A DNA stretch of 39,856 nucleotides, taken from NCBI GenBank assembly GCA_964583985.1, contig CAZOYD010000028.1, positions 1 to 39,856 of the forward strand. Direction: 5' to 3'. Of this stretch, positions 6,408 to 39,414 are shown piece after piece. This stretch comes from an uncultured archaeon (GTDB lineage Archaea > Asgardarchaeota > Lokiarchaeia > Sigyniarchaeales > SOKP01). The notes below the pieces were generated by a model. It saw nothing but the letters and a program-made list of their open reading frames with translations, made no database searches and had not been told where the DNA came from. How positions within the stretch are numbered: the stretch's first letter is position 1; every line of letters starts with the position of its first letter. A program made the position numbers and the translations under genes.

Positions 6408-7088
6408 TCACATGGAAATTATTCCTAATTCATGTAATTTTTTTAATGAATCCAATATTTTTGTTTTAGATCTTTGCATTATCTTAGATATTTGTAAGGG
6501 TGAATTGTTGCCAGTACATATCAAAGCAACATGATATTCAAAATCGTCAATCATGCCCATTGATAAGATTTTTCCTAAGACTTCTTTTCCTTTCACGATC
6601 ATTAATTTTGGAAAAACCTCGGCTACATGGCCTCCATAACATAAATTTTCAATATCGGTTATGATTGTCTTAAATGGAGTCTTATCGGTAGTTGTTCGAA
6701 AATTTTGGATATCAGATTGATGTTTTTTCCAAAACCTATTAGCAATTTTATGAATTACTTCCACTAATTTTTCTGTATCATCATCAGCATCTGAAATACT
6801 GCAAAAAAGGATTCGTGAAGGAGAATGATAATATATTAAAATTACAGAATATTCTGACTCCAACAACCTTACAAATTCTTTTTCTTTTTCTCCTTTAGCC
6901 ATTGCGGCTTGAATGTTATCAATAATTGCGTTGATTTCATTAAAAAATCCTGGAATAAGATTGGCATCTACTTTATCTTTCTGAAACTCCTTAAAACTCG
7001 TATCAAGTATAGAAATGCCGTTATCTCCATCAATTAGATAAATTTTATAGATCAAAATATTAATGAGTAAAATTTCAAATCTTATCAA
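6408..7088 (-). CDS. Longin-like domain protein with C-terminal winged-helix/HTH
   Basis: N-terminal IYLIDGDNGISIL...LIPGFFNEI longin pattern; C-terminal SPLQISKIMQRSKTKILDSLKKLHELGII HTH pattern. Start codon uncertain. Confidence 0.65.
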   Translation of the reverse strand: MIRFEILLINILIYKIYLIDGDNGISILDTSFKEFQKDKVDANLIPGFFNEINAIIDNIQAAMAKGEKEKEFVRLLESEYSVILIYYHSPSRILFCSISDADDDTEKLVEVIHKIANRFWKKHQSDIQNFRTTTDKTPFKTIITDIENLCYGGHVAEVFPKLMIVKGKEVLGKILSMGMIDDFEYHVALICTGNNSPLQISKIMQRSKTKILDSLKKLHELGIISM

Positions 7089-7256: not shown

Positions 7257-8510
7257 ATGAACAATTTTAAAAAAACTTTCCTTATACTAGCACTGTTATT
7301 GGTATCAATAGGATCACCATTTCTCTTTCAAAATAACAATGAAAGACAATTACAAGACGATAATATCAACTTATCTTCTTCAGATGGCGTATCGAACTAT
7401 GAAATTCTCCAAAGCGTGACTTATGAAGTTGAAGTTAATTTTACTTTAACGCATAATTCACCAGCGAGTGGTCAATATTGGTTTCAATTTTCTCGATTTG
7501 ATGATCGCCAGCCAGATTCAAGGTTAACTCATTTTGTTCCACCATATCAAGAGAGTGAATTATTATTTAGTAAAATTATTGGGTCTAGTAATACACCTTA
7601 TGTCTTACAAGATCGATTTAACAATACCTATGATGTTTTTAACAATACATTAACACCAACTGAAACGATTACATTAAGTCAAAAGTATCAACTAAAATTA
7701 AACGAAATATCATTTGCTCATGTGAATGCGAGTGAAATTGGTGTCTATGATACGTCAAATGAGATGTTTGATTTGTATTGCAATCATTCTGTGTTATATT
7801 ACGAAAGAAATAATACGAATCTCATTGCAACTTCATTCAGTATTGTTGATCCTGGAGACAATCCCATAACAAAAGCCACGAAAATTTGTAATTGGGTTTC
7901 AGATTACCTAACCTATGATGATACTCTCCCTGCTCAAGAAAAGGGAGCATTATGGGCATATGATAATAAACGAGGAGATTGTAGTGAATATTCTGATTTA
8001 ATGATTACACTTCTAAGATGTCAAGGAATTCCAGCAAGAAAAGTTACCGGATATGTAATCTCTAATAATCCATCATTGAGACCGTATGTAGGACAGCAAT
8101 GGGATTTTTATGTGAACGATCAAGAAGTAAGCACTTTCTTGGGGCATGCATGGGTGGAATATTATGTTCCTAACATCGGGTGGATTGCTAGTGATCCTAC
8201 GTGGAACTCAAATGGGGATTATGCCAATAAGGTTGATTATCTACGAATTAATTTAAATGTCGGAGCGTGGTTTCCCATTCCAATGTTACCTGATGAAAGC
8301 GAGTTTCCCAATCCATGTATAGTCTATCAAACACTTTCAGATAAAACTTATCAGTATTCCGTTAAAGTTACAGTAATTAATACTAATCTTCTTCCTGATT
8401 ATACATTGATTTGGATAATTATTATTAGTTCTGCTGCTGGAATTATTATAGTTGTAACTCTAATCGTAGCATCGAAGAGAAGAAAGAAGAGAGTTAAATG
8501 GACATATTAA
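7257..8510 (+). CDS. Secreted, C-terminally anchored transglutaminase-like (Cys-His-Asp) protein
   Basis: Signal peptide; GDCSEYS, LRCQGIPAR, HAWVEYY and DPT triad motifs; C-terminal TM followed by KRRKKR. Confidence 0.9.
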   Translation: MNNFKKTFLILALLLVSIGSPFLFQNNNERQLQDDNINLSSSDGVSNYEILQSVTYEVEVNFTLTHNSPASGQYWFQFSRFDDRQPDSRLTHFVPPYQESELLFSKIIGSSNTPYVLQDRFNNTYDVFNNTLTPTETITLSQKYQLKLNEISFAHVNASEIGVYDTSNEMFDLYCNHSVLYYERNNTNLIATSFSIVDPGDNPITKATKICNWVSDYLTYDDTLPAQEKGALWAYDNKRGDCSEYSDLMITLLRCQGIPARKVTGYVISNNPSLRPYVGQQWDFYVNDQEVSTFLGHAWVEYYVPNIGWIASDPTWNSNGDYANKVDYLRINLNVGAWFPIPMLPDESEFPNPCIVYQTLSDKTYQYSVKVTVINTNLLPDYTLIWIIIISSAAGIIIVVTLIVASKRRKKRVKWTY

Positions 8511-8549: not shown

Positions 8550-9962
8550 TTAAATATAAGTTTTTATCAAATCTTTTATATTTTTAACAAAATCAGATAA
8601 ATGCTTTTCAACATTTACTATACCTTGTTCTTTTTCCACGTATAAAAGAAGATAAAGATTATACTGATCGACGATTATTCTTTTAAAAATCACGTTTTTT
8701 GAATCATCAGTAATTCCAGATGATGTGAGATAGTCTTTTTTCAACAATTTAAATTCTTTAAATGTTTTAAATAATGTTTGATAATGTGGAGCAGAAATTT
8801 CAAATACTGTTTCGGAGATCTCAGATTTTGAATAACTGGATAATATAATACCATTATCATTTAGTAGCAAAATTGCCTCCGAATTTGTATTCAATGCAAA
8901 CTGCTTTAGCTGGTTTAAAAATAATTCGCGATTCGGACTTAATTGACTAAGACCAAAACTATATGCCGAAATCAAGGACCAGTGATCAAAGATAGATGTG
9001 TTGAACATTTTAAAGAAAAACCCTTCAGATTGTTTTTCTATATCAATAGTTACATTCTTAATTCGCTTTTTCATGTATTTTGTATCTTTCAAGTCAGGAT
9101 CATGTTTATTCAAGCAAATAACTATTGGTGGGAACTCATTTAGCTCTTTTAAATTATAAATTATTTCAGCATACATTTTTAGCGATTCTGCTATTCTTTC
9201 TTCATCTTGGATGTCAATAAAATAGAACAAAAGATCGATATTATATAGATAAAATTTACTTTCTTCGATAAATTTCTCACGATACGTTTTCTGACCTGCC
9301 AAATCCCAGATTGAAATTTGTGAATTTTGCTGTTCGAATAACTTTTCTTGCGATCGAGCAACTCCTTTAGTTGGTAAGACCTTTATAATTTCTGAATATC
9401 TCTTTTTAACTCCCAACAAGAAGCTAGTTTTTCCAGCACCATCAATCCCAGTAAATAAGATCTTAATTTGGCGTTTTATTGATAATGGATCTTCTAATTC
9501 TTCGGTAAATTCTATGAGTTCTGTTTTTAAACTTTGTATTGTTTTCTCAATTTCTGCAAAATCCTTAGTTACTTGGATTTTAGAGGCTGCTTTATCAATG
9601 ATGATTCTTAAGTATTTCATGTTTTCGTAGAAGAATACTCTATTAGACTGATCAATTAAGATTGTTATTGTAGACGCTTTCGCATTTCCACGAGCTTGAG
9701 CATCAGGAATCAAAAAAAAGTATGTTAATCCATTTAATTTCAAATCTGGAAAAGGAAGTATGCCAAAATAGCTAATTTCTTCTATAGATGAGCCGTCTTG
9801 ATAAATTGCATCCCCCATTAAAATTGATATCGTCTTCATGGCGATGAGTAACCGAGCTGATTCATCCATATCTCGTGGAAAATAAATTTTCGGCGTGGGA
9901 CCATCATCATCAAAAATACTGAATACAATAGCTTTTATAATTTCCGGTTTTTGGTCGCTCAT
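8550..9962 (-). CDS. uDENN/longin - Arf/Rag-like small GTPase - roadblock fusion protein
   Basis: N-terminal VFSIFDDDGPTP; G1 GIDGAGKT, G2 PT, G3 WDLAGQ, G4 NKHD, G5 TSIFD; C-terminal EAILLLNDNGIILS roadblock pattern. Confidence 0.85.
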   Translation of the reverse strand: MSDQKPEIIKAIVFSIFDDDGPTPKIYFPRDMDESARLLIAMKTISILMGDAIYQDGSSIEEISYFGILPFPDLKLNGLTYFFLIPDAQARGNAKASTITILIDQSNRVFFYENMKYLRIIIDKAASKIQVTKDFAEIEKTIQSLKTELIEFTEELEDPLSIKRQIKILFTGIDGAGKTSFLLGVKKRYSEIIKVLPTKGVARSQEKLFEQQNSQISIWDLAGQKTYREKFIEESKFYLYNIDLLFYFIDIQDEERIAESLKMYAEIIYNLKELNEFPPIVICLNKHDPDLKDTKYMKKRIKNVTIDIEKQSEGFFFKMFNTSIFDHWSLISAYSFGLSQLSPNRELFLNQLKQFALNTNSEAILLLNDNGIILSSYSKSEISETVFEISAPHYQTLFKTFKEFKLLKKDYLTSSGITDDSKNVIFKRIIVDQYNLYLLLYVEKEQGIVNVEKHLSDFVKNIKDLIKTYI

Positions 9963-10174: not shown

Positions 10175-11965
10175 TCAAGGGACATATTTTAAACTCAAGA
10201 TTTCAGTATTTGTGCAACTATATTTTAAAATTCTCATTAAATCCTTTTGAGTTTGAAGATTTTCTTTATGATTTCCGATTGAAATTTCCACCCTCGCATC
10301 ATTTAAGATCCAAGGATGAAAAATACCTTGTTTTTTAATTATGTCGTCTAAATCAAGATTTTCCTTTGCTCTAAAATGTGAAGATGTTTGATAATTCTTT
10401 ATAGCTAATTTGGGAAAGTGTTTTAAATCCAATCCTAAGAATCGTCTAATTGCTCCTTTAGACGAAGCGTCAATTAATGAATAATGTTTCCCATCATCCT
10501 TAGAACGCTCTTCACAGGAAATGTGTATCGCTTTCATTATTTTTTTTCCGAAAGAAAATGCATCATCATTCTCGTGTAATTCAAAATTCGTTATGATTTT
10601 AACAGCTTCATTTAATCCAATAAAACCAACACATAATTCTTGGTTACTAAGATCAAATAATTGGCGTTCTTCGACATAACCACCACATAATGGAAGGTGA
10701 CCTGTTCTCAAACGTCGTTCTATAATTGCATGCTTTTTATCCAAAATTTTAAAACAAATATCTAAATTTGATTGAAGGTGCTCAATAAATTTCGTTTCGT
10801 CTTGATTAAGAAAAGCATATCGTGGTAAATTTAATGATATCTTTTGAAGAACTCCATGATTTAAATAAGACAAAGGATCAGTATGAATTAAATTATTGAG
10901 TATTTTGTGTCGATCTACATTAATAAATTGAGGAGTTTGATTTTTTAATACTTCCCTGCAGATTTCCTCATATTGTTGTTTGAATTCATTTAACCATTCT
11001 TTATTATAATAAATTAGGTGTTCAGGATAAGGGAAATAACAATTATTATCATCACCTTTAGTGAAAATTTGTGTGATAATATCAAATAATTTTGTGCATT
11101 CTTGTTTGTATGAACTATAATCCCCAGTTTTTATTCCACCAGGTCCAATTGCAGGTGCATCTAACATTGAAGATAAAATCCCTGTCGAGCAAGAAAGAGA
11201 TGTTTTTAAGTAATTTTTTCCTGAGGACGTTGATAAATAATTAATGCTATAAACAAATCTCTTCATTGCTTCTTGTATTTCTGCATCGTCCAATCCTTGA
11301 ATATATGGGGCTAAAAATAATGTAATTAATTCAAGTCCTTGATTACCGCTAAATTCTGTTTGGATCATTCCTAACCAATTGGCAAGATGATTTACTGCTT
11401 CTTTTAAATTTTTGGCTGGTTTTGATTTGCATGTATAGGTATAATTTTTAATGGGAGGTAATCCATTTTCTAAAATCAGACGAGGATCCCAATACTGATT
11501 ATAAGGACGCAAGTCGAAAAATTTGAGTTGATGAATATATATATCTCCAAATAAGTGAGCTCTTGATTCCTCATCATTGAGAATTCGGAGTAGTGTATAT
11601 TCTTCTGCTAATTGATTTGCAGCCCAATGATGGATTTTTTCTGGATTTATAATGTTTTTTGAATCGATTTGTTGGTTCATTTCAAGTACTTTTTCATAAT
11701 CCATTAAAGGCATCCCAATACGAGTATATAATTTTCTTTCTTGCCCGTATTGATTTTCTGAAAGGATTGAACAAACGATTTCTCTGATATGAGGGCCGGA
11801 TAAAAATTTCATATTAGAACTAATGATTCTTCTAACAACAAGCTCTGTGATCTTTCTAGCATTTTCTTCATCCATACCAGTTTCTTGAATAATACTTTCA
11901 TTTATTTTAGAGGGTTCAAATTCGTCAACATCCCCTTTCTTGAATACTTTTGGTAGAAGATTCAT
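10175..11965 (-). CDS. ATP-cone plus class III (anaerobic) ribonucleotide reductase NrdD-like protein, probably catalytically inactive
   Basis: N-terminal ATP cone (KVFKKGDVDEFEPSKI); AHLFGDIYIH, SGNQG, ISLNLPRYA and VGFIGLNE NrdD motifs. The C-terminal Zn ribbon and RxxGY glycyl-radical motif are missing. Confidence 0.8.
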   Translation of the reverse strand: MNLLPKVFKKGDVDEFEPSKINESIIQETGMDEENARKITELVVRRIISSNMKFLSGPHIREIVCSILSENQYGQERKLYTRIGMPLMDYEKVLEMNQQIDSKNIINPEKIHHWAANQLAEEYTLLRILNDEESRAHLFGDIYIHQLKFFDLRPYNQYWDPRLILENGLPPIKNYTYTCKSKPAKNLKEAVNHLANWLGMIQTEFSGNQGLELITLFLAPYIQGLDDAEIQEAMKRFVYSINYLSTSSGKNYLKTSLSCSTGILSSMLDAPAIGPGGIKTGDYSSYKQECTKLFDIITQIFTKGDDNNCYFPYPEHLIYYNKEWLNEFKQQYEEICREVLKNQTPQFINVDRHKILNNLIHTDPLSYLNHGVLQKISLNLPRYAFLNQDETKFIEHLQSNLDICFKILDKKHAIIERRLRTGHLPLCGGYVEERQLFDLSNQELCVGFIGLNEAVKIITNFELHENDDAFSFGKKIMKAIHISCEERSKDDGKHYSLIDASSKGAIRRFLGLDLKHFPKLAIKNYQTSSHFRAKENLDLDDIIKKQGIFHPWILNDARVEISIGNHKENLQTQKDLMRILKYSCTNTEILSLKYVP

Positions 11966-12180: not shown

Positions 12181-12996
12181 ATGAAACTATCGTTATCTGT
12201 AAAGACCGTAAAACACTTCTTTTCTGAAATCTACAAGATCTTGAAAGGATCGGATACAAGAGTATCGAAAGTATGGATTGAATTCTCGGATATAAATTTT
12301 TTTAAAGGTAATGATGAATGTGAGATTAGAAGTTATTTAAGCAATTTTGAATCAATCGAAATTCAAAAAGGAAATTATAAAAATTATATAGTAGTTGATA
12401 AAATTCTATTTATTGTTGAAAGTATTCAAATATTAGAAAAGGATATTGATAAATTATCGATATTGGTCGATTTTAATGGATTTGAAGCATTAGTCGAGGA
12501 AATTCTTAAGAGAAATAATTATAAAACAGTTAAAAATTATAGATTTTCTGATAGATCGAATTACAAAACAAAAACAGCTCAGAAAAGGTATGAAATTGAT
12601 GTTATTGGCATATCTAAAAATCTTATTTTACTTATCGATGCAAAACAATGGAAAAATAAAGATTCATTTGCTGCGATGAATAAAGCTGCCAATCACCAAT
12701 ATCAAAGAGCTATTGCATTACAGTCAAATCCCGAAGTTTTTTCTAGCATGGTTCAAGCCGTTTTGGGGATTTCAGATAATATTGAAGATAAACTCCCATT
12801 TATTCTCGTTCCTGTGATGGTGAGCCTTGAACATAACCATATTAAATTTAATGAAAATGATGTACCATTGGTCTCTATTTTTCAACTTAATTCGTTCTTA
12901 CAAGAATTAATAATTAATATGACTTATATTAAAACCATTAAAATAAACAAGTTATTCATTCAGAAACAATTATCTGATTTTTATTCAATCTGTTAA
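12181..12996 (+). CDS. PD-(D/E)xK nuclease-fold protein (Mrr-cat/NERD-like)
   Basis: FEALVEEIL...EIDVIG...LIDAKQWK motif. Confidence 0.75.
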   Translation: MKLSLSVKTVKHFFSEIYKILKGSDTRVSKVWIEFSDINFFKGNDECEIRSYLSNFESIEIQKGNYKNYIVVDKILFIVESIQILEKDIDKLSILVDFNGFEALVEEILKRNNYKTVKNYRFSDRSNYKTKTAQKRYEIDVIGISKNLILLIDAKQWKNKDSFAAMNKAANHQYQRAIALQSNPEVFSSMVQAVLGISDNIEDKLPFILVPVMVSLEHNHIKFNENDVPLVSIFQLNSFLQELIINMTYIKTIKINKLFIQKQLSDFYSIC

Positions 12997-14001
12997 TCCT
13001 AAATATTGTTTGACTTGTTTCTTTACAATATTCGCAGCAAAATAAATAATCCCACTCTTAATGCGAGGATTGGAAAATAAGATTAAAAGCATGTCTTGAG
13101 TAATTGGAGCTAAATCCAATACACCTTGACTCCCTCTAACTGAAATATTGAGTAATTTACCAGCATTTAATCCTTCTATGATATCATTTCCAATCATTGA
13201 TAGATTTTGACCGATTACCCCAAAAAGTGTATCAGATATGCGAGAAGAGATTGCCGATGCAAGAATAGTTCCTTCTGATTTAATAATTGCTGATGCTTCA
13301 ATATTCAAATCTATCTTTAAGAGATTACTTAATATTTCATTCATGCTTGTTGGGGGTATTGATTCTTTTTCTACTTGAATTTCTTCTTTTTTTTCTAGTT
13401 TATCACGCGATGTTCCTTTAATACTTATTTTTTCTGAAAGAAACTTTAAAACTTTCGACATGTCTTGCTCTAATTGTTTTTGACGGATAACTGAATCATC
13501 AATTGGGCTCTCTTCTTCTAATACAGTTGATTTGGCTGTAATTTTTGGTTTTTCTAAAGCAGATTTTGCTTTTCCTCGGGCAAAAGAACCATACACATCT
13601 TTTTGTGCTATAATTGAACCCTTATAAGGACCAGGAGTAATCTCTTTTAATATTTCTCTTTCATATTCTTCCTTTTCGATAAAATCATCAAAATTTTCTC
13701 CTGATTCCTTTTTTTTTATAATTTCCTCGCTCATCTCTTGATTACTCGGTAAAGCTCTCACTTTAGGTATCTCTTGAAGTTCAAATGATTTTGGTTGGGT
13801 CTTGGAGTTATCTGGAGGTTTTTCTTTTGATTTTTGTTGAGGTTTAAATGAAGCTTGTTTGTCTTTTTTTACTGGTTGTTTTTTAGTTTCTATTTTAACA
13901 CGAGGAGCTTTTGTTGCAACTGGTAATAATGCCCCACACTTACGGCAAATATGTCCTTTAGCTTCATTGTTTGTTGCTCCACAATTACTACATATTATCA
14001 A
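12985..14001 (-). CDS. Zinc-ribbon protein with disordered linker and C-terminal roadblock/LC7 domain
   Basis: CSNCG...CRKCG; long K/E/P/Q-rich linker; IEASAIIKSEGTILAS...GKLLNISVRGSQG roadblock pattern. Confidence 0.8.
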   Translation of the reverse strand: MIICSNCGATNNEAKGHICRKCGALLPVATKAPRVKIETKKQPVKKDKQASFKPQQKSKEKPPDNSKTQPKSFELQEIPKVRALPSNQEMSEEIIKKKESGENFDDFIEKEEYEREILKEITPGPYKGSIIAQKDVYGSFARGKAKSALEKPKITAKSTVLEEESPIDDSVIRQKQLEQDMSKVLKFLSEKISIKGTSRDKLEKKEEIQVEKESIPPTSMNEILSNLLKIDLNIEASAIIKSEGTILASAISSRISDTLFGVIGQNLSMIGNDIIEGLNAGKLLNISVRGSQGVLDLAPITQDMLLILFSNPRIKSGIIYFAANIVKKQVKQYLGLTD

Positions 14002-14149: not shown

Positions 14150-15133
14150 CTAATTCTTTAAAATTTCTTTTAGGAGATTAGCAAATGAATCAAAATCTTC
14201 CTCATTGATGGTAGGATCTTGCTTGAGCATAAGTAAATAATAAGGTGGGCTATCTTCTTTTAACTTTAATTGCTTGAATACAAAATTCTTCCCAAATCGT
14301 TGAACAATCATCTTATTTTCTTCTTTTTCACGTCCGGGTAAAACTTGAGTGAACTGAAAGCTATCGTTTAACGTGAGAAAATAAGGGGTGGATGCGGATA
14401 ATAGATTTTTGACTTCCTCATTTTTATAAAAACTTCCTATGATTAAAGAATTATCATCAATCATAACCACTCCTTCAGAATCTACTTTTCGAGCAAACTC
14501 ATCAATAGTTTTCTCGATTAACTGAGATTTAGGATATAGATTTAATAAGATTTCAGACATCGCTTTAATTATACTAGAAAGGTTATAGATTGATGTATCA
14601 TAGAAGAATATTTGCTTGTAATTCGCAGCTTTCTTGATTTTCTCCCTTAAATCTACTTTCATTGTCTGCATTTCATTAATAGCATTCCTTAAGAGGGCAG
14701 GATCACATTTATGGAAAAATATGTAAATGGGGGGCTCGATTTCAAGTTTATTTAATTGCCCCACGACATCAGCTAAATAACTAATTGATTCAGGAATCCT
14801 AGATTGATTTTGAATGTCGATAACATAAATTAAAATTTCCGTTCCATCAAAATATTTTCCTGGATTTTTAAGATAAGAAATTCTATATGAAATTTGACCT
14901 CCTAAATCCCATTCTGCTATATCTTTTCCCAAAAATTCAAAAATTCTACGTTGAGCACCGCGAGTAGGTTTAAGCAATGCAATTTTTGAAAATTCTCTTT
15001 GAATTGCAAGTATGATTGTGCTTTTACCAGCCGTATCCAAACCAGTAAAAAGGATTTTGTGAGGCTCTTCTTTTTCTTGTTTTTTTGATAGCTTTTCTTT
15101 TGATAAGTATTGAATATCCAAAAATAATCTCAC
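14150..15133 (-). CDS. Rag/Gtr-like small GTPase with C-terminal roadblock domain
   Basis: G1 GLDTAGKS, G2 PT, G3 WDLGGQ, G4 HKCD (Rag-type His), G5 TSIY; C-terminal EGVVMIDDNSLIIG. Confidence 0.85.
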   Translation of the reverse strand: MRLFLDIQYLSKEKLSKKQEKEEPHKILFTGLDTAGKSTIILAIQREFSKIALLKPTRGAQRRIFEFLGKDIAEWDLGGQISYRISYLKNPGKYFDGTEILIYVIDIQNQSRIPESISYLADVVGQLNKLEIEPPIYIFFHKCDPALLRNAINEMQTMKVDLREKIKKAANYKQIFFYDTSIYNLSSIIKAMSEILLNLYPKSQLIEKTIDEFARKVDSEGVVMIDDNSLIIGSFYKNEEVKNLLSASTPYFLTLNDSFQFTQVLPGREKEENKMIVQRFGKNFVFKQLKLKEDSPPYYLLMLKQDPTINEEDFDSFANLLKEILKN

Positions 15134-15184: not shown

Positions 15185-16546
15185 TCATTCGATTGTATAA
15201 AAATTCTTTTGTAGGTAAGTCTTAAAGTCATGATAATTGCTTAATTCTAAAGACTTTTTTGATTCCTTTTTTTTTTGAATGCATTCCAATGAATTGGGTA
15301 TCATTGGGCGTTCATGTGTTAATTTAGTGATTTGATTGGGAAATTTTGCGGGATCAGCGGTTTCAAAATTTATTGATTTAATATTTTTTTCCATTGGAAA
15401 TTCATTCTGATATCTCAATAATGCTGCCCATCCAACAGCGCCATGAGGATCGATAAGCAATTTAAATTCTTTATAGAAGTCAATGATCGTTTTTTTCGTG
15501 ATTTCATCTGTAATAGAATAAGATCGAATTTCCTCCCGAATTTTTTCCATGTTGGGCTCTTTTCTCAAATTTCCTTGCTCATCAATATGCCCGTTATAAA
15601 GATCAATTAATCGAGCCAAGTTTGAGGGGTGCCCTACATTCATTGCATTTGATATGCATATTTTTGACGGTTGCACTTTTTCATAATATCCGGTAGCTAA
15701 AAATTTGGGAAATTCATCATTTTCATTTACGGCAGAAATGAACTTCTTCACGGGTAATCCCATTCTCTTTGCGATTAGTCCTCCCGTGAGATTCCCAAAA
15801 TTACCGGATGGTACAGAAAAAATAACCTCCTCATTTTCATGTTCGATGATATCAGAATAACTTTTAAAATAATATACAGCTTGTGGCAACAATCGACCAA
15901 TATTAATTGAATTAGCAGAGGTCAGATTTAAATGTGATAGACCGGAATCTGAAAACGCGTTTTTTGCAAATCTTTGGCAATCATCAAATTTTCCATTAAT
16001 CGCAATCGCTGTGATATTTCCTCCTAAAGTTGTCATTTGCTTGCGTTGTAAGGTGCTAATCTCCTTTTTTGGATAGAGAATTACTACATCAACATTTTGT
16101 TTGTTAAAAAAGGCTTGAGCTACAGCACCACCAGTATCACCAGAAGTCGCCGTTATAATCACAATTTTTTTATTCTCTTCAATTAAAAATTGTTCCATAA
16201 AACTCGCTAACATTCTTGCTCCAACATCCTTAAAACTGCAAGTTGGACCCTTATCTAAATAGCAGAGATAATTATTTTCTATTATTAAATTTATGGGAAT
16301 TGGAAAATCAAGACTTTTATTAATAATGTTTTTTAGGTCTTTTTCTTGCATCTCTTCTTCTAAAAATGGATAGAGAATTTCAAATGCGTTTTCTTTAAAA
16401 TTTAATGACTTAAATTCAAAAATTTCATCTTGAGAAATAAGAGGGATCTTGTCAAACATGTAAAGACCATTATCGGGAGCTTGCCCTTTCAAAACCGCTT
16501 CCTTAAAACTCACGTTAGAAGAACGTTTATTTGTAGAATATAACAT
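15185..16546 (-). CDS. thrC: Threonine synthase
   Basis: GQAPDNGLY, GPTCSFKD (PLP Lys), ATSGDTG, SANSINIGRL, VPSGNFGNL, DPHGAV. Confidence 0.95.
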   Translation of the reverse strand: MLYSTNKRSSNVSFKEAVLKGQAPDNGLYMFDKIPLISQDEIFEFKSLNFKENAFEILYPFLEEEMQEKDLKNIINKSLDFPIPINLIIENNYLCYLDKGPTCSFKDVGARMLASFMEQFLIEENKKIVIITATSGDTGGAVAQAFFNKQNVDVVILYPKKEISTLQRKQMTTLGGNITAIAINGKFDDCQRFAKNAFSDSGLSHLNLTSANSINIGRLLPQAVYYFKSYSDIIEHENEEVIFSVPSGNFGNLTGGLIAKRMGLPVKKFISAVNENDEFPKFLATGYYEKVQPSKICISNAMNVGHPSNLARLIDLYNGHIDEQGNLRKEPNMEKIREEIRSYSITDEITKKTIIDFYKEFKLLIDPHGAVGWAALLRYQNEFPMEKNIKSINFETADPAKFPNQITKLTHERPMIPNSLECIQKKKESKKSLELSNYHDFKTYLQKNFYTIE

Positions 16547-16554
16547 CTTTATTA

Positions 16555-17103
16555 TTAAATATTTTTTATTGGATTAAATTTATTTTGTGCAAAGATTTCA
16601 TTCAATTTATCAATAACCGCTTGAGGAGTATCGGCACCATAAATTTTATCAGTTCTCCTATCATCCAGTTGTTGTCCCGCCATTTTTGATGACCATCCTT
16701 CAACACAAGTAAGACCAATTATTGGTTTTTCATAGATCCATGCAAAACAAATTTCTGATAATGTTCCTGCTTTACCTGCTATTGCCACACACGCGTCTCC
16801 ACTCAAAACAACTACCACATTACGCGCTTGAGAAAATGGGATCGGTATAACAATGTCCACGTATTTATTTGCCTTATTTTTGTCTATAAAAGGGATAAGT
16901 CCTATTGTTAGCCCTCCTTCTTCTTTTACTCCAAAACAAACCGCTTCCATTACACCTGAAAGTCCTCCACATGATACCGCATATTTATTTCGAGCAAGTA
17001 ATCGCCCTAATTCGACAGCAACTTGCCTTGTTTGTTCATCGATTTCGCTTGCTCCAATTACGGCTATTGTTCCCTTAAATTTATCTTTGAAATTAAAACT
17101 CAT
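16555..17103 (-). CDS. LOG/SLOG-family nucleotide-binding protein (TIGR00725-like)
   Basis: IAVIGAS, CGGLSGVMEAVC, ARN, GKAGTLSEI. Confidence 0.9.
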   Translation of the reverse strand: MSFNFKDKFKGTIAVIGASEIDEQTRQVAVELGRLLARNKYAVSCGGLSGVMEAVCFGVKEEGGLTIGLIPFIDKNKANKYVDIVIPIPFSQARNVVVVLSGDACVAIAGKAGTLSEICFAWIYEKPIIGLTCVEGWSSKMAGQQLDDRRTDKIYGADTPQAVIDKLNEIFAQNKFNPIKNI

Positions 17104-17259
17104 GGCTTTTTAAAATCCTTTTTTTTATAATTTGTAATATTCTGGGAGTCTTTTTATTTGTTTAGAATATTTTTATCCAAAAAAAGATGTATTTTTGTAT
17201 TGACATTATTGATCATTAGATTGTTGAATAATGTTGATCAAAATGATCGAAAACAAAAA

Positions 17260-17266
17260 TTTATAT
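17260..17266 (+). promoter_or_regulatory. Candidate archaeal TATA box for the small zinc-finger gene
   Basis: TTTATAT preceded by an A-rich BRE-like run, 23-29 nt upstream of the ATG at 17289 (leaderless geometry). AT-rich background limits confidence. Confidence 0.35.
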
Positions 17267-17288
17267 GGTAGGAATCTAATATTTATAT

Positions 17289-17486
17289 ATGGAAACAAAA
17301 CATCGATTAAAACCAAGTATTTTTATAGCACCCCCTCGGGACGACACTACTGTTTATTGCCCGGATTGTGGATATGCAATGGAGAAAATCCCTCATACAC
17401 CTAAAAATAAAAAACCAATTTATCAATGTCCTAGATGTAATATATTTATTCCGGAACAAGTTTATGGCCTCTTAGATTTTAAATAA
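17289..17486 (+). CDS. Small CPxCG-type zinc-finger protein
   Basis: CPDCG...CPRC in 65 aa. Confidence 0.75.
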   Translation: METKHRLKPSIFIAPPRDDTTVYCPDCGYAMEKIPHTPKNKKPIYQCPRCNIFIPEQVYGLLDFK

Positions 17487-17633
17487 AGACTAATAAAGAG
17501 AATTAAATTTCCTTATGGAGCATATTGGGGTTTTTTTAGCTTCCTTCTTATTAATTAAATCTAGCCCTAAAGATAAATGAAATTTTGCAATCCATAATAT
17601 ATAATTTATTTTAAAATAAGATTTCGTCTTGTT

Positions 17634-18686
17634 TCACATTACCAATTTGTTTGAGGAATATCTCATTCTTTCTTGAATAATAAATATTAAATCATTCATT
17701 ATTGCAGAAGCAGCTTCGGCACCTCCTGCACCCCTTCCAGATAATACAATTTTACCGGCATTCTTAGTTTCTAATTCAATAATATTTAAAGAATCATTGA
17801 CGTTAAAATAAGAACTTTTATTAACAGGGTGAGGTTTTACAAATAAATGTCCATTTTTCGCAAATGATAATTGTTTGATAACTTGATTATTTAATTTTGC
17901 TAATTCAATATCATATTTATTGATATTTTCAATTCCCTTGATATTTACATCCTTAATAGTTAAGCCATAATCTAACAGTTCATCTGCGAGAATAACTAAT
18001 TTACCAGCAGCGTCGTAACCACTAATATCTAGATTTGGATTAGATTCTGCATAACCCAGATCTTGTGCTTCTTTCAAAGCCTGTTCAAAACGACATCCAT
18101 GATTGAACATTTTGCTGAGGATATAGTTTGAAGTCCCATTTAATATCGCAGTTATTCCGATTATTTTACTACCTTGTAAATTTCTTTTTATCGATAATAT
18201 GGGAACGCAACTTGCTACTGTAGCCTCGTATCTGATTAGCTGCATTCGATCTTGTGCTATTTTTTTAATATTTTTATAATCAAGATAAAGTGGAGCTTTA
18301 TTAGACGTTATAACATCCATCTTATTATTAAGAGCTTTTATAATATGTGATCTTGCTGGTTCTCCATTATCTGGAATTGTGGGAGTAGTTTCAATCATTA
18401 TATTAAGATTTAGTTTATCAATATAATCTAGAGCGCGATATCCAGATTTCCAATTTACAAGAGTCCGAAATTCTTTCCCTAATTTTAATAACCTATCTAA
18501 ATTTATCCCATTTTCGTCTAAAATCGCACCATCATTTTCAAAAATTCCTAAAACTTTAATATCAATCTTAAATCTACTGATAATAATTGGGTTTATCTCA
18601 TTTAATAATTGGAGAAAAGCAGTTCCAACATTTCCTTTACCAATTAATCCGATATTAAAATTCATGTTAAAGAAATTATGGCTCAA
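17634..18686 (-). CDS. hom: Homoserine dehydrogenase
   Basis: GKGNVG Rossmann motif, TSNKAP, YEATV, ILNGTSNYIL, LGYAESNP, DAAGK, GRGAGG. The start may be a downstream ATG. Confidence 0.93.
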   Translation of the reverse strand: MSHNFFNMNFNIGLIGKGNVGTAFLQLLNEINPIIISRFKIDIKVLGIFENDGAILDENGINLDRLLKLGKEFRTLVNWKSGYRALDYIDKLNLNIMIETTPTIPDNGEPARSHIIKALNNKMDVITSNKAPLYLDYKNIKKIAQDRMQLIRYEATVASCVPILSIKRNLQGSKIIGITAILNGTSNYILSKMFNHGCRFEQALKEAQDLGYAESNPNLDISGYDAAGKLVILADELLDYGLTIKDVNIKGIENINKYDIELAKLNNQVIKQLSFAKNGHLFVKPHPVNKSSYFNVNDSLNIIELETKNAGKIVLSGRGAGGAEAASAIMNDLIFIIQERMRYSSNKLVM

Positions 18687-19531: not shown

Positions 19532-20491
19532 CTAAAATTTGATTACATCAAGTGATTTCTTTCCATCACTTATTTTCAATAAATGCTCATCCTTAATAAT
19601 TTTTCCAATGATGGTAGCGGTTAAATTATGTTTATCAAAGATCGTGAGGATCTCTTTGCTGTTATCTTCTGGAGCAGTTAATATATATGAGGTGGTTAGA
19701 TACATTTTAATAAATTTTTCCAGATCATAACCATTTTTAGTTAAAAATGGTGGGATTGTTATTTGATTTATGTTAATTATAGCTCCAAGATTAGAATATT
19801 TGATAAGTTGTAATATAGTTCCAAATATTCCCGCATTGGAGATATCTTTAGCAGAATTAGCTAAATGTTTTTGTGCAATTATGTTCATTGATTTTCTTCT
19901 GAATAAAACCTCTTCAGATTGTTTAAATGTAACGGTATCCCAATAATATTTACCCACGTCCGGGATTTTACCCTTAAAATCTACTGCTAATATGATATCA
20001 TCTTCGTATTTCGCGTTTTTCGCTGATAAATAATCACTTTTTTTTATTTCACCAATCATTGTGGAACTGAGTTCATTGTAACTACTATTTGGGTTAGTAT
20101 GCCCTCGCACGATAGGAACGCGAAATTTTTGAGAACCCACCAAGGCTCCTTTAAATATTTTTTCACCGATGTGCTTATTTGTAAAAGACACTATCAAACT
20201 TGCTGCCAAGGGAGTTCCCCCACAACAATAAATATCATCTATCCCTACCAATATTGAGCTAAATCCCGCTCCAAATGGATTTTTTAAAATATACTCCGTT
20301 TTTATCCTATCTGTAGTCATTAGGATTAAATTTTCATCATTTAGAATAGATGCTGAATCTTCTCCTATATCTGAAAGGATTCTTTTGCTCTTGTATGATT
20401 CAGATTGAATTAATTGAATAAATGGATTGATCTCTCTTTTTTCAATAATATTTTTATTTTCTATAATTGCTGTGGCAATTTTTTTTAGCAT
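19532..20491 (-). CDS. AIR-synthase (PurM/ThiL/SelD superfamily)-related protein, sll0787/methanogenesis-marker-2-like
   Basis: IGEDSA, DDIYCCGGTP, RGHT, AKDISNAGIFGT. Confidence 0.8.
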   Translation of the reverse strand: MLKKIATAIIENKNIIEKREINPFIQLIQSESYKSKRILSDIGEDSASILNDENLILMTTDRIKTEYILKNPFGAGFSSILVGIDDIYCCGGTPLAASLIVSFTNKHIGEKIFKGALVGSQKFRVPIVRGHTNPNSSYNELSSTMIGEIKKSDYLSAKNAKYEDDIILAVDFKGKIPDVGKYYWDTVTFKQSEEVLFRRKSMNIIAQKHLANSAKDISNAGIFGTILQLIKYSNLGAIININQITIPPFLTKNGYDLEKFIKMYLTTSYILTAPEDNSKEILTIFDKHNLTATIIGKIIKDEHLLKISDGKKSLDVIKF

Positions 20492-20577: not shown

Positions 20578-22071
20578 ATGGAAGAATTAATAAAGTCCTC
20601 AATTTTTAATGGATTAGTATTCGCAGTCTATGATAAATTTGGTCCACAACCCATTTACATGTTTCCTAATCCTATTAGGAGAACTTTTCAAGATGATGTA
20701 AATCATGAATCTCAAAAAGATTTACTTGAATTAACAATGAGAGATTATACTCAAATATCAATAAAAAATCTCTCTCTCTTGATAGGGGATGGTTCTATTT
20801 TTGAGAATCCTAAAATACAGGAATTTAAACATCATGCAATCATTCCATTTCCTGATTTTCACTCTACATCTTTAACATATTTCCATTTCGTTGAAATCGA
20901 ACAATCTGAAAAACCCATAGCTACAGCATTTTCCCTATTAATAGATGAAAATCGTAGAAGCTTTCTGTATAATAATATGGATCGTTTACAACATATAATT
21001 ATAGATTTTTTTTTGAAATTTGATAAAGAATTATTTGGTAATTTAAAAACTCAAGAAGAAGTAGAATCTTTCTTTGAATCCCTTTTAAACCAAATGATGG
21101 AAATACAACAATCACCCTCTACCTCATTTTCAGCTCAAAGAAAAATGAAGATTTTATTTTCTGGATTGGATGATTCTGGGAAATCTTCCTTTCTTCTTTC
21201 CGTTGATAGAAAATATTCGAAATTAATTGGGGTAAAACCTTCTTTAGGAGCAAAAGTTAGTTCAATTGAAGCATTGGGGGCAACAATTTTTTTATGGGAT
21301 CTCGGAGGGCAACTCAGTCTGAGACAAAAGTACTTGAATAAAGCTCATATATATCTTTACGAAGCAGACCTTTTATTTTATTTCATTGACGTCAGAAATC
21401 AGAAGAGGTTCAAAGAGAGTTTGGAATATTTAAAAAATATTAAAGATGTATTGGCTAAATTTGAACAAAAGACTCCGATTATCTATGTTTTCTCAAAATC
21501 AGATCCCGATATTTTAAATTCAAGGAAAATTCAAAATAATATCAGTACTCTTACAAAAGCTATTGTTTCGGAGGGAAAAGCAGAAATATTTTTGACTAGT
21601 ATATTTGATCCATTCTCAATTTTAAGAGCTTTTAGTTCTGGCATCGCGAAATTAAGCCCAAATCGTGATTTAATAGAACATAATCTCAACCTCTTTTTAA
21701 AAGATACTAAAATATATTTAGCTTTATTGATGAGTGGCGATGGGTTAATTATTGCAGAAGTTTATACACCTAAAGCATCTAAAATCACTAAAATAAATGA
21801 ACCTCAAGAACTTTTAAACGTATTTGAACTCACTGGACCACAATTTGCCATCCTCTTTAAAATTTTCTCAAAATATAGATCTATTCCTCAGAATGAAGCT
21901 ATTTTTAAAGTAGCAAACTCTGTAATTTTGGTTAGAAAGGTAAAAATTTCAAATTTTGAAATGTTCATTTTATTGTTAGTGGATGATGAATCCGAAAAAG
22001 AAAATATCAATCTTAAATTACCGAAATTCATCGAAATTACAGCAGATTTGTTATTAACTTATATTTCTTAG
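20578..22071 (+). CDS. uDENN/longin - Arf/Rag-like small GTPase - roadblock fusion protein (paralogue of 8550..9962)
   Basis: VFAVYDKFGPQP; IIPFPD; G1 GLDDSGKS, G2 PS, G3 WDLGGQ, G4 SKSD, G5 TSIFD; shares LSPNR(D/E)L and the roadblock tail with the paralogue. Confidence 0.85.
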   Translation: MEELIKSSIFNGLVFAVYDKFGPQPIYMFPNPIRRTFQDDVNHESQKDLLELTMRDYTQISIKNLSLLIGDGSIFENPKIQEFKHHAIIPFPDFHSTSLTYFHFVEIEQSEKPIATAFSLLIDENRRSFLYNNMDRLQHIIIDFFLKFDKELFGNLKTQEEVESFFESLLNQMMEIQQSPSTSFSAQRKMKILFSGLDDSGKSSFLLSVDRKYSKLIGVKPSLGAKVSSIEALGATIFLWDLGGQLSLRQKYLNKAHIYLYEADLLFYFIDVRNQKRFKESLEYLKNIKDVLAKFEQKTPIIYVFSKSDPDILNSRKIQNNISTLTKAIVSEGKAEIFLTSIFDPFSILRAFSSGIAKLSPNRDLIEHNLNLFLKDTKIYLALLMSGDGLIIAEVYTPKASKITKINEPQELLNVFELTGPQFAILFKIFSKYRSIPQNEAIFKVANSVILVRKVKISNFEMFILLLVDDESEKENINLKLPKFIEITADLLLTYIS

Positions 22072-38358: not shown

Positions 38359-39414
38359 ATGAGCGGCGAATTAATTCATTCAATTATTTATACTGAGTTT
38401 GATGATGAGATAGGTCCTAATCCATTGTTTTATCTTCCAAAAGAATTACCTGAGCACATACGGATGCTTGTTGGAATAAAAACAATAACAATTCTCTCAG
38501 GAGATCATGGATTTATCCCTGAATCGCTCATGATCATTCCTTTCCCCTCATTAAAATTAAAAGGAATCATAAAATATATAGAGAGACGGGATCCAGAGAG
38601 GAGAGGTAATGTCGCTCAATCTGCAATTACTTTTTTATTCAAGGAAATAGATGACATAATTTTTTATCGCTATATCGATTATTTAGACGCTCCATTTAAT
38701 GAGACGGCTCGAATTATCGGTGATCTCATATCTCAAAACGCTCCGCATGATGCGATTATTCAAGAATTAAACCATTTACGAGATAATATCCATTCCATAC
38801 TCATCCAACTTAAAGTTAAAGAAAATATTCAAGTTTCTTCCAAACCATTTCCCGAAATATTAAACAAAGGGGAAAATATCATCGAGTTCAAAATCAAGTT
38901 ATCAATTTGTGGAGATCCAGGTGTTGGAAAAACAAGCACTATTGTAAGATTTACTGATAATGCTTATAGTAGGCGTTATCTTCCCACGATGGGCGTATCA
39001 ATTAGCGACAAATCATTTAGACTTAAGAATAACGTGGTTGAATTAGTTTTATGGGATATTGCAGGGCAAGCTAAATTTCAAACGATGCGCAGGCATTTTT
39101 ACCAAGGAAGTGAAGCAGTCGTCTTGGTTTTTGATCTTACAAATCCCAAAAGCTTCTCAAGCATTAGTGATTGGTATACTGATATCCAAAGGAATATTTC
39201 TAATGAGGTGAAACCTTTAGGTTACCTTTTCGGAAATAAATGTGACATGATAGAGGAGCGGAAAATCAATAAAGAAGATGCCATAAAACTCGCAAGTAAT
39301 TTAAATTTAAATTATATCGAGACTTCGGCACTAACTGGGGAAAACATTGAATATGCATTTTTTCAGATTGCTGAAAAAGTTGTAAATTCCATAAGAGAAC
39401 CAATGTACAATTAA
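38359..39414 (+). CDS. uDENN/longin - Rab-like small GTPase fusion protein
   Basis: IYTEFDDEIGPNP; IIPFP; G1 GDPGVGKT, YLPTMGV, WDIAGQ, FQTMRRHFYQGS, GNKCD, ETSALTG. No C-terminal Cys. Confidence 0.9.
   Translation: MSGELIHSIIYTEFDDEIGPNPLFYLPKELPEHIRMLVGIKTITILSGDHGFIPESLMIIPFPSLKLKGIIKYIERRDPERRGNVAQSAITFLFKEIDDIIFYRYIDYLDAPFNETARIIGDLISQNAPHDAIIQELNHLRDNIHSILIQLKVKENIQVSSKPFPEILNKGENIIEFKIKLSICGDPGVGKTSTIVRFTDNAYSRRYLPTMGVSISDKSFRLKNNVVELVLWDIAGQAKFQTMRRHFYQGSEAVVLVFDLTNPKSFSSISDWYTDIQRNISNEVKPLGYLFGNKCDMIEERKINKEDAIKLASNLNLNYIETSALTGENIEYAFFQIAEKVVNSIREPMYN

Follow-up and report, generated by a model that had tools for sequence, protein, structure and literature searches.

Nutrient signalling through eukaryotic mTORC1 is controlled via Rag GTPases and longin-type GTPase-activating proteins (GAPs), namely FLCN and GATOR1. 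FLCN–FNIP2 is the GAP for RagC/D, the NPRL2–NPRL3 pair of GATOR1 is the GAP for RagA/B, and C9orf72–SMCR8 is an Arf GAP. In eukaryotes GAP and GTPase are separate proteins, and a DENN-type domain follows the longin in FLCN, FNIP2, SMCR8 and C9orf72. Here we describe a gene that may bear on the origin of this pairing of Rag GTPases with longin GAPs. It lies on a 39,856-nucleotide stretch of DNA from an uncultured Lokiarchaeial archaeon (contig CAZOYD010000028.1, assembly GCA_964583985.1; the whole stretch is hereafter called the window) and encodes, in one chain, a longin domain resembling those of the eukaryotic GAPs, then a GTPase of the Rag-like kind, then a roadblock domain.

Two published accounts come closest. 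In an AlphaFold2 (AF2) survey of MK-D1 GTPases, Tran et al. (2024, PMC10933270) described the longin–GTPase–roadblock (L-G-R) architecture; their paper names FLCN in its introduction only and mentions no arginine finger. A 2025 study in Traffic (PMC12290439, section 2.6 and Fig. 5D) reported Asgard longins of the FLCN/SMCR8 type that carry both a Gly-Pro (GP) motif and an arginine finger. That study highlighted Heimdallarchaeia, left open whether the partner GTPases are Arf-related or of the Rag/Gtr kind, and does not use the word “fused”. In active-state structures of the eukaryotic complexes, SMCR8 R147 and FLCN R164 point at BeF3 (PMC8213707, PMC9473554). Structures have also been solved for two Lokiarchaeota Rag-like GTPases, LokiRagO (8yl2) and LokiRagM (8zla/9m28), which lack an N-terminal longin, unlike the protein described here. 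Within the collection of papers searched, we found none on either of them and none linking an arginine finger to a longin–GTPase fusion.

The Lokiarchaeial protein overlaps with both accounts and extends them. With the L-G-R proteins of PMC10933270 it shares the order of the three domains, a Rag-like/Arf-like G domain and the lineage Lokiarchaeia, whereas that survey contains no FLCN-type classification of the longin, arginine finger, GP motif, pairing of arginine-bearing and arginine-less paralogues, or gene neighbourhood. With the longins of PMC12290439 it has in common both motifs, their structural positions and the proposed relationship to eukaryotic GAP longins; here the longin is part of one polypeptide with a Rag-like GTPase (with a Rab-like one in paralogues). 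An earlier sequence-only reading of the window knew of no description of the arginine finger in Asgard longin–GTPase fusions; for Asgard longins, PMC12290439 has overtaken that statement. The parts are already published, and what is new here is the fusion tied to the finger, a clade of arginine-less paralogues, a linked LokiRagO orthologue and a sublineage with degenerate switch regions.

The gene, at 8550–9962 on the minus strand, is the arginine-bearing member of a conserved longin–GTPase–roadblock pair in this Lokiarchaeial order. We call it R+ and its arginine-less paralogue R−. The R+ open reading frame encodes 470 residues, of which residues 13–24 are VFSIFDDDGPTP and residues 82–102 are FFLIPDAQARGNAKASTITIL. 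Starting at 9710 and reading along the minus strand, att cct gat gct caa gct cgt gga translates to IPDAQARG, which places the cgt codon of R91 at 9690–9692 within DAQARG. The G motifs are intact: G1 GIDGAGKT, G2 PTKG, G3 WDLAGQ, G4 NKHD and G5 TSIF. The arginine with its codon position and the complete set of G motifs had been proposed from the letters alone, and strand reading, translation and motif reading bear them out; the GP motif lies at residues 21–22. A full-length AF2 model has a predicted local distance difference test (pLDDT) score of 78.7 and a predicted template modelling (pTM) score of 0.74. We regard the domain assignment as secure, at a high level of confidence.

The N-terminal 160 residues (9483–9962, minus strand) form a longin. 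An AF2 model of this part, built with 93 aligned relatives, reached pLDDT 87.5 and pTM 0.84, and follows the longin order beta-beta-alpha-beta-beta-beta-alpha-alpha: beta1 9–18, beta2 21–28, alpha1 34–49, beta3 65–71, beta4 76–86 and beta5 94–104, then helices at 105–131 and a linker helix at 135–155. G21-P22 (9897–9902, minus strand) sits at the beta1/beta2 turn, where it opens strand 21–28, and A90-R91-G92 (9687–9695, minus strand) lies in the beta4–beta5 loop, with R91 as the candidate arginine finger. Eukaryotic GAP longins have the same layout, with the GP at the beta1/beta2 turn and the arginine in the beta4–beta5 region. In the alignment to 9o5d_D (7–157 against 5–144), an offset anchored at the ends would put R91 at residue 78 of NPRL2, the position of its catalytic arginine R78, although other NPRL2 rows end differently.

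Fold searches place this longin next to the eukaryotic GAP longins. We compared residues 1–160 with 48,161 representative PDB chains using VIA-align, which is independent of Foldseek. The closest solved fold was 8yqg, a Lokiarchaeota roadblock–longin protein (Z 18.2 over 142 residues, root-mean-square deviation (rmsd) 2.3 Å, profile E 1.2e-15), which has the GP motif as R+ does but carries its longin behind a roadblock and not before a GTPase. Ranks 2 to 8 were held by Lst4 (Z 13.1), the FLCN–FNIP2 chain 6nzd_H (12.9), C9orf72 (12.7), the GATOR1 chain 8fw5_B (11.4), a second FLCN–FNIP2 chain, 6ulg_N (11.1), SMCR8 6lt0_B (10.8) and the SEA complex chain 8adl_S (10.4). Below them came DENND1A at Z 10.1, and all remaining longins and roadblocks scored 9.5 or less, so residues 1–160 are structurally nearer to the GAP-longin group (Z 10.4–13.1) than to other longins. 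Foldseek likewise returned 8yqg at the top, with GATOR1, FLCN–FNIP2, SEA and Lst4 chains directly beneath it and DENND1B and C9orf72 after those; E-values for the GAP-longin entries ran from 4.6e-5 to 1.6e-3. The sequence-only domain assignment, in which an FLCN/SMCR8/NPRL2-type longin precedes a Rag/Arf-like GTPase with its roadblock, is supported by the models and fold comparisons. For placing residues 1–160 in the FLCN/NPRL2/SMCR8 class of GAP longins, fold gives good support and sequence weak support. By architecture R+ is an incomplete member of that class, because no DENN-type domain follows the longin; the Rag-like GTPase and roadblock stand there instead.

The C-terminal two thirds of R+ are a GTPase of the Rag/Gtr type, made up of an Arf-like P-loop G domain, a switch II glutamine and a roadblock. 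The G domain spans residues 164–343 (8934–9473, minus strand), holds G1–G5 and the switch II residue Gln224, and scores 79.3 bits against Pfam Gtr1_RagA (cut-off 22; residues 167–383) and 62.5 bits against Arf. Residues 345–469 (8556–8930, minus strand) show the pattern alpha-beta-beta-alpha-beta-beta-beta-alpha in the full-length model. Together, residues 165–469 align to whole Rag chains over about 280 residues at an rmsd of about 4 Å and Z 20–23.7: LokiRagO 8yl2 reaches 23.7 (and E 7e-34 to residues 128–401 in sequence), RagC 22.1, Gtr2 21.2 and RagA about 21. Arf and Arl chains, which consist of the G domain only, reach Z of about 17. R+ thus has the Rag/Gtr arrangement of a G domain followed by a C-terminal roadblock, and the “roadblock-like tail” noticed in the bare sequence is a roadblock by both its secondary structure and its alignment to RagC, RagA and Gtr2. 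Judged by its motifs, the combination of a GxDxxGKT P-loop with Gln224 is of the kind predicted to require an external arginine.

Both longin motifs are strongly conserved. A-R-G and G-P are invariant in 120 of 120 close orthologue clusters (66–90% identity), and [DE]xxARG is present at all 80 species-representative genome loci, where it sits within 48 different octamers; A-R-G is therefore fixed while its flanks drift. With this pattern of conservation, the motif is no product of chance. We then searched residues 1–160 against 1.84 billion proteins represented at 50% identity, which gave 128 matches at E ≤0.001. Of these distant relatives, 112 are ungapped at the R91 column, and 85 of them carry arginine in it; GP is present in 98 of 105 aligned ones. 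Relatives are labelled Promethearchaeota or Promethearchaeia. Clusters in the ESM Atlas are likewise from Promethearchaeota, with scores below 0.9; one carries Pfam NPR2 on 19% of its members, which we treat as a lead only.

R+ is found throughout two families (f1 and f2) of the order to which this genome belongs. Counting this genome, a clear orthologue of its longin (residues 1–160, E <1e-30) is present in 68 of 75 genomes of the two families; the seven without one are 71–92% complete. Other families of the phylum gave weak longin matches only. Orthologues occur in single-contig genomes of the order measuring 4.3 (G306), 4.4 and 6.0 Mb. A full-length R+ orthologue of 68% identity also turned up on DATKTW010000091.1, a contig labelled “Candidatus Nanopelagicaceae bacterium” that is probably a mis-binned Lokiarchaeial contig.

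The R− paralogue lies in the same window at 20578–22071 on the plus strand and encodes 497 residues with the same longin–GTPase–roadblock order. It retains GP in the form GPQP, and EQSE-KP stands where the ARG loop would be. In a maximum-likelihood tree that includes longin-less Rag-like proteins as a third group, all R− proteins fall in a single clade (support 94/100) and the R+ proteins in an unresolved grade. An old duplication followed by one loss of the arginine would account for this topology. Within the R− clade the former arginine column varies between P, Q, K, L, S and a gap, and the G domain mostly retains WDLGGQ; with that motif kept and no arginine of their own, the R− paralogues would need a finger from elsewhere. 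A clear R− orthologue (E <1e-90) is present in 57 of 61 f1 genomes, this one included, and likely ones occur in f2 and in two further families (f31, f32). The R+/R− pair would parallel the eukaryotic GAPs, in which one arginine-bearing and one arginine-less subunit act together on Rag or Arf targets.

A sublineage of R+ proteins bears on whether the arginine serves its own chain. Three members, P0249, P0250 and a gene of genome G164 (L117:9797–11158), have no DxxGQ; their G3 positions read WNIKENE, WNFRDPP and WDYKPKE. The G2 threonine is lost in all three, and P0249 also lacks the P-loop Ser/Thr. GP and FFLIPDExxRGK remain almost unchanged in them, which indicates an arginine function independent of own-chain hydrolysis and, as far as sequence can say, points to a target on a different chain or to a role outside catalysis. 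In G164 the neighbouring gene for a longin-less Rag-like GTPase with roadblock (hereafter G-RB) retains all G motifs. Searching 160 genomes of the class with P0249 returned nothing at E ≤1e-90. Another protein of G164 (L120:1348–2892, on its contig C27) is a 514-residue longin–GTPase–roadblock-like chain; since its P-loop, GLKHSEINR, lacks GK[ST] and its G3 is degenerate, both long paralogues in that genus may be pseudo-GTPases.

R+, R− and G-RB are genetically linked. In the window G-RB lies between the two paralogues at 14150–15133 (minus strand) and is orthologous to LokiRagO (Pfam Gtr1_RagA 95.7 bits; phmmer to 8yl2 E 2e-86). It stands between R+ and R− genes on one contig in 42 genomes across the two families, and because the intervening genes differ between families, the linkage looks selected more than passively inherited. 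Directly downstream of G-RB, at 12985–14001 (minus strand), is a gene for a protein with a Zn-ribbon, a low-complexity linker and a roadblock, orthologous to P0251 of G164 (E 1e-31). In G164, G-RB, this Zn-ribbon–roadblock gene and R+ come in that order and in the same orientation, separated by 120 and 54 bp, a run that looks like an operon.

From this evidence we consider it likely, with a probability of roughly 55%, that R91 is a GAP finger acting mostly in trans. Arg91 in the beta4–beta5 loop and Gly21-Pro22 would together form the putative GAP active site, from which the arginine would reach into the pocket where a Rag-like G domain binds its nucleotide, speeding GTP hydrolysis. Action would most likely be in trans, inside an oligomer held by roadblock and longin domains, and not confined to its own chain. 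Candidate targets are the R− paralogue, the LokiRagO-type G-RB protein or a second copy of R+. With one finger for two G domains, the predicted product is an asymmetric dimer comparable to RagA:RagC with FLCN:FNIP2 or NPRL2:NPRL3.

The sequence-only reading had instead proposed a built-in GAP, and the part of that proposal that stands is the joining of a GAP-type longin and a GTPase in one chain. Taken as purely cis action, the longin would fold back so that R91 completes the active site of its own chain, giving a self-timing switch that needs no partner. The covalent union itself speaks for such a switch, as do a 21-residue helix (135–155) with an 8-residue linker that could span the distance, a pTM for the full-length model that suggests defined domain packing, and a G domain that is intact in all close orthologues. 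Yet GP and ARG persist in orthologues with degenerate switch II, a paralogue lacking the arginine, its G domain mostly intact, has been conserved together with R+, and the known longin GAPs are longin dimers that cup their GTPase (PMC8213707). We therefore hold purely cis action to be improbable. A different proposal drops catalysis altogether and makes the longin a dimerisation platform, scaffold or guanine nucleotide exchange factor (GEF)-like domain, as in DENN, TRAPP or Mon1–Ccz1, with R91 kept because it makes a structural contact, contributes to a partner interface or binds an anionic ligand. GEF or scaffold roles are the ones assigned to most longin/roadblock platforms (PMC10933270), and DENND1 GEF domains score Z of about 10 against our longin. 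A platform of this sort accounts poorly for the combination of GP and arginine, which is reported to be confined to GAP longins and missing from those of the GEF type (PMC12290439), for A-R-G being fixed in an exposed loop whose neighbours vary freely, and for the loss of the arginine in a paralogue clade where the column then became variable, which resembles the FLCN/FNIP and NPRL2/NPRL3 pairs. Although more than a formality, this alternative seems to us unlikely.

Several observations weigh against a catalytic arginine acting in trans. The solved structure closest in fold, 8yqg, is dimeric and lacks an arginine in the R91 column; the fold can therefore do without one, which also suits a non-catalytic platform. 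The argument from a dead G domain depends on one sublineage, and gene linkage among related genomes can be passive inheritance, the genomes not being independent. At the sequence level, Pfam Folliculin (PF11704) matches residues 79–134, R91 included, at 21–22.3 bits, just short of the cut-off of 23.3. Searched against the PDB with phmmer, residues 1–118 gave only chance uL22 matches and did not reach FLCN or NPRL2. A profile of 20 longins found 8yqg and then helical designs in the PDB, with SMCR8 at E 0.62 only; at that non-significant E it aligns the GP stretch to SMCR8 58–94, which holds G68-P69. P0175, the homologue that scores best against Pfam Folliculin, matched 8yqg alone in the PDB. 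Sequence identity to eukaryotic longins is 7–14%, which, with no significant direct sequence match to FLCN or NPRL2 in the PDB, would suit the view that R+ has a generic longin in which DAQARG is FLCN-like by chance or convergence. That view sits badly with an unbiased fold search in which the GAP-longin group ranks above all other longins, and with GP and arginine both standing at their expected structural places. Three homologues moreover exceed the Pfam Folliculin threshold (P0175 with 28.7 bits, P0145 with 27.1, P0229 with 24.5), and 23 of 93 longin family members match the family at E ≤0.01. We rate chance resemblance as very improbable.

If the arginine is catalytic in trans, the asymmetry between catalytic and non-catalytic subunits of eukaryotic Rag regulators would predate eukaryotes. 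To the question raised in PMC12290439, on which GTPases such Asgard longins act, the fusion offers a direct and testable answer, as do the R− twin and the orthologue of the already crystallised LokiRagO, both nearby as candidate substrates or partners. Material for biochemistry appears to exist, since the G-RB protein of the single-contig genome G306, one of the 42 with the linked genes, agrees in sequence with the 8yl2 chain along the compared stretch. A broader proposal is that R+, R−, the LokiRagO-type G-RB and the Zn-ribbon–roadblock protein are an archaeal forerunner of the Rag–Ragulator–GATOR1/FLCN module; we put it forward tentatively and think it more probably wrong than right by a wide measure. 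On such a view the longin GAP and the Rag-type GTPase would have begun as one chain acting in trans within a dimer, and the sublineage with a dead G domain would already be a dedicated GAP subunit; the longin GAPs that are separate proteins in eukaryotes could go back to this state.

The longin module also occurs in other architectures. At 38359–39414 (plus strand) the window encodes a longin with GPNP and DPERRG joined to a Ras/Rab-like GTPase with no roadblock, and this longin–Rab/Ras-like architecture with both motifs (GP and RG) comprises 28 clusters, this one among them. Longin–Rag–roadblock proteins account for 8–9 clusters with GP and the arginine and about 13 without the arginine, while stand-alone or otherwise extended longins with both motifs make up 38 clusters. 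One relative in the longin family carries TIR_2 (E 7e-19) and another a TrmB helix-turn-helix (HTH) domain (E 1e-12), so the module is joined to non-GTPase partners too. The longin query matches P0198 (2545 residues), P0244 (3920) and P0225 (666) in 13, 4 and 9 stretches, respectively; these may be multi-longin repeat proteins or compositional matches.

The remaining genes around the three GTPase genes vary. In this genus, the intervals between Rag-like GTPase genes (in the window, 15185–18686 and 19532–20491) hold genes for threonine synthase, an SLOG/LOG-family protein, homoserine dehydrogenase and an AIR-synthase-related protein. Other genes fill the space between the three GTPase genes in G306, so a link of amino-acid synthesis genes to the Rag-like genes is not conserved. 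A gene at 10175–11965 and a NERD-domain gene at 12181–12996 split the run of G-RB, Zn-ribbon–roadblock and R+ that is contiguous in G164. In genome G206 (C3:111912–113923), two tandem LokiRagO-type G-RB copies stand between the R− and R+ genes. On the other side of R+, at 7257–8510, a gene for a transglutaminase-like membrane protein is convergent with the adjoining R+ gene, as it is in G306 (L124:112–1053), and this transglutaminase-like neighbour is conserved across the two families. Further out, at 6408–7088, the window encodes a 226-residue protein whose N-terminal part matched no family and whose C-terminal part weakly matches TrmB/ArsR-type HTH domains (E 0.0015–0.013).

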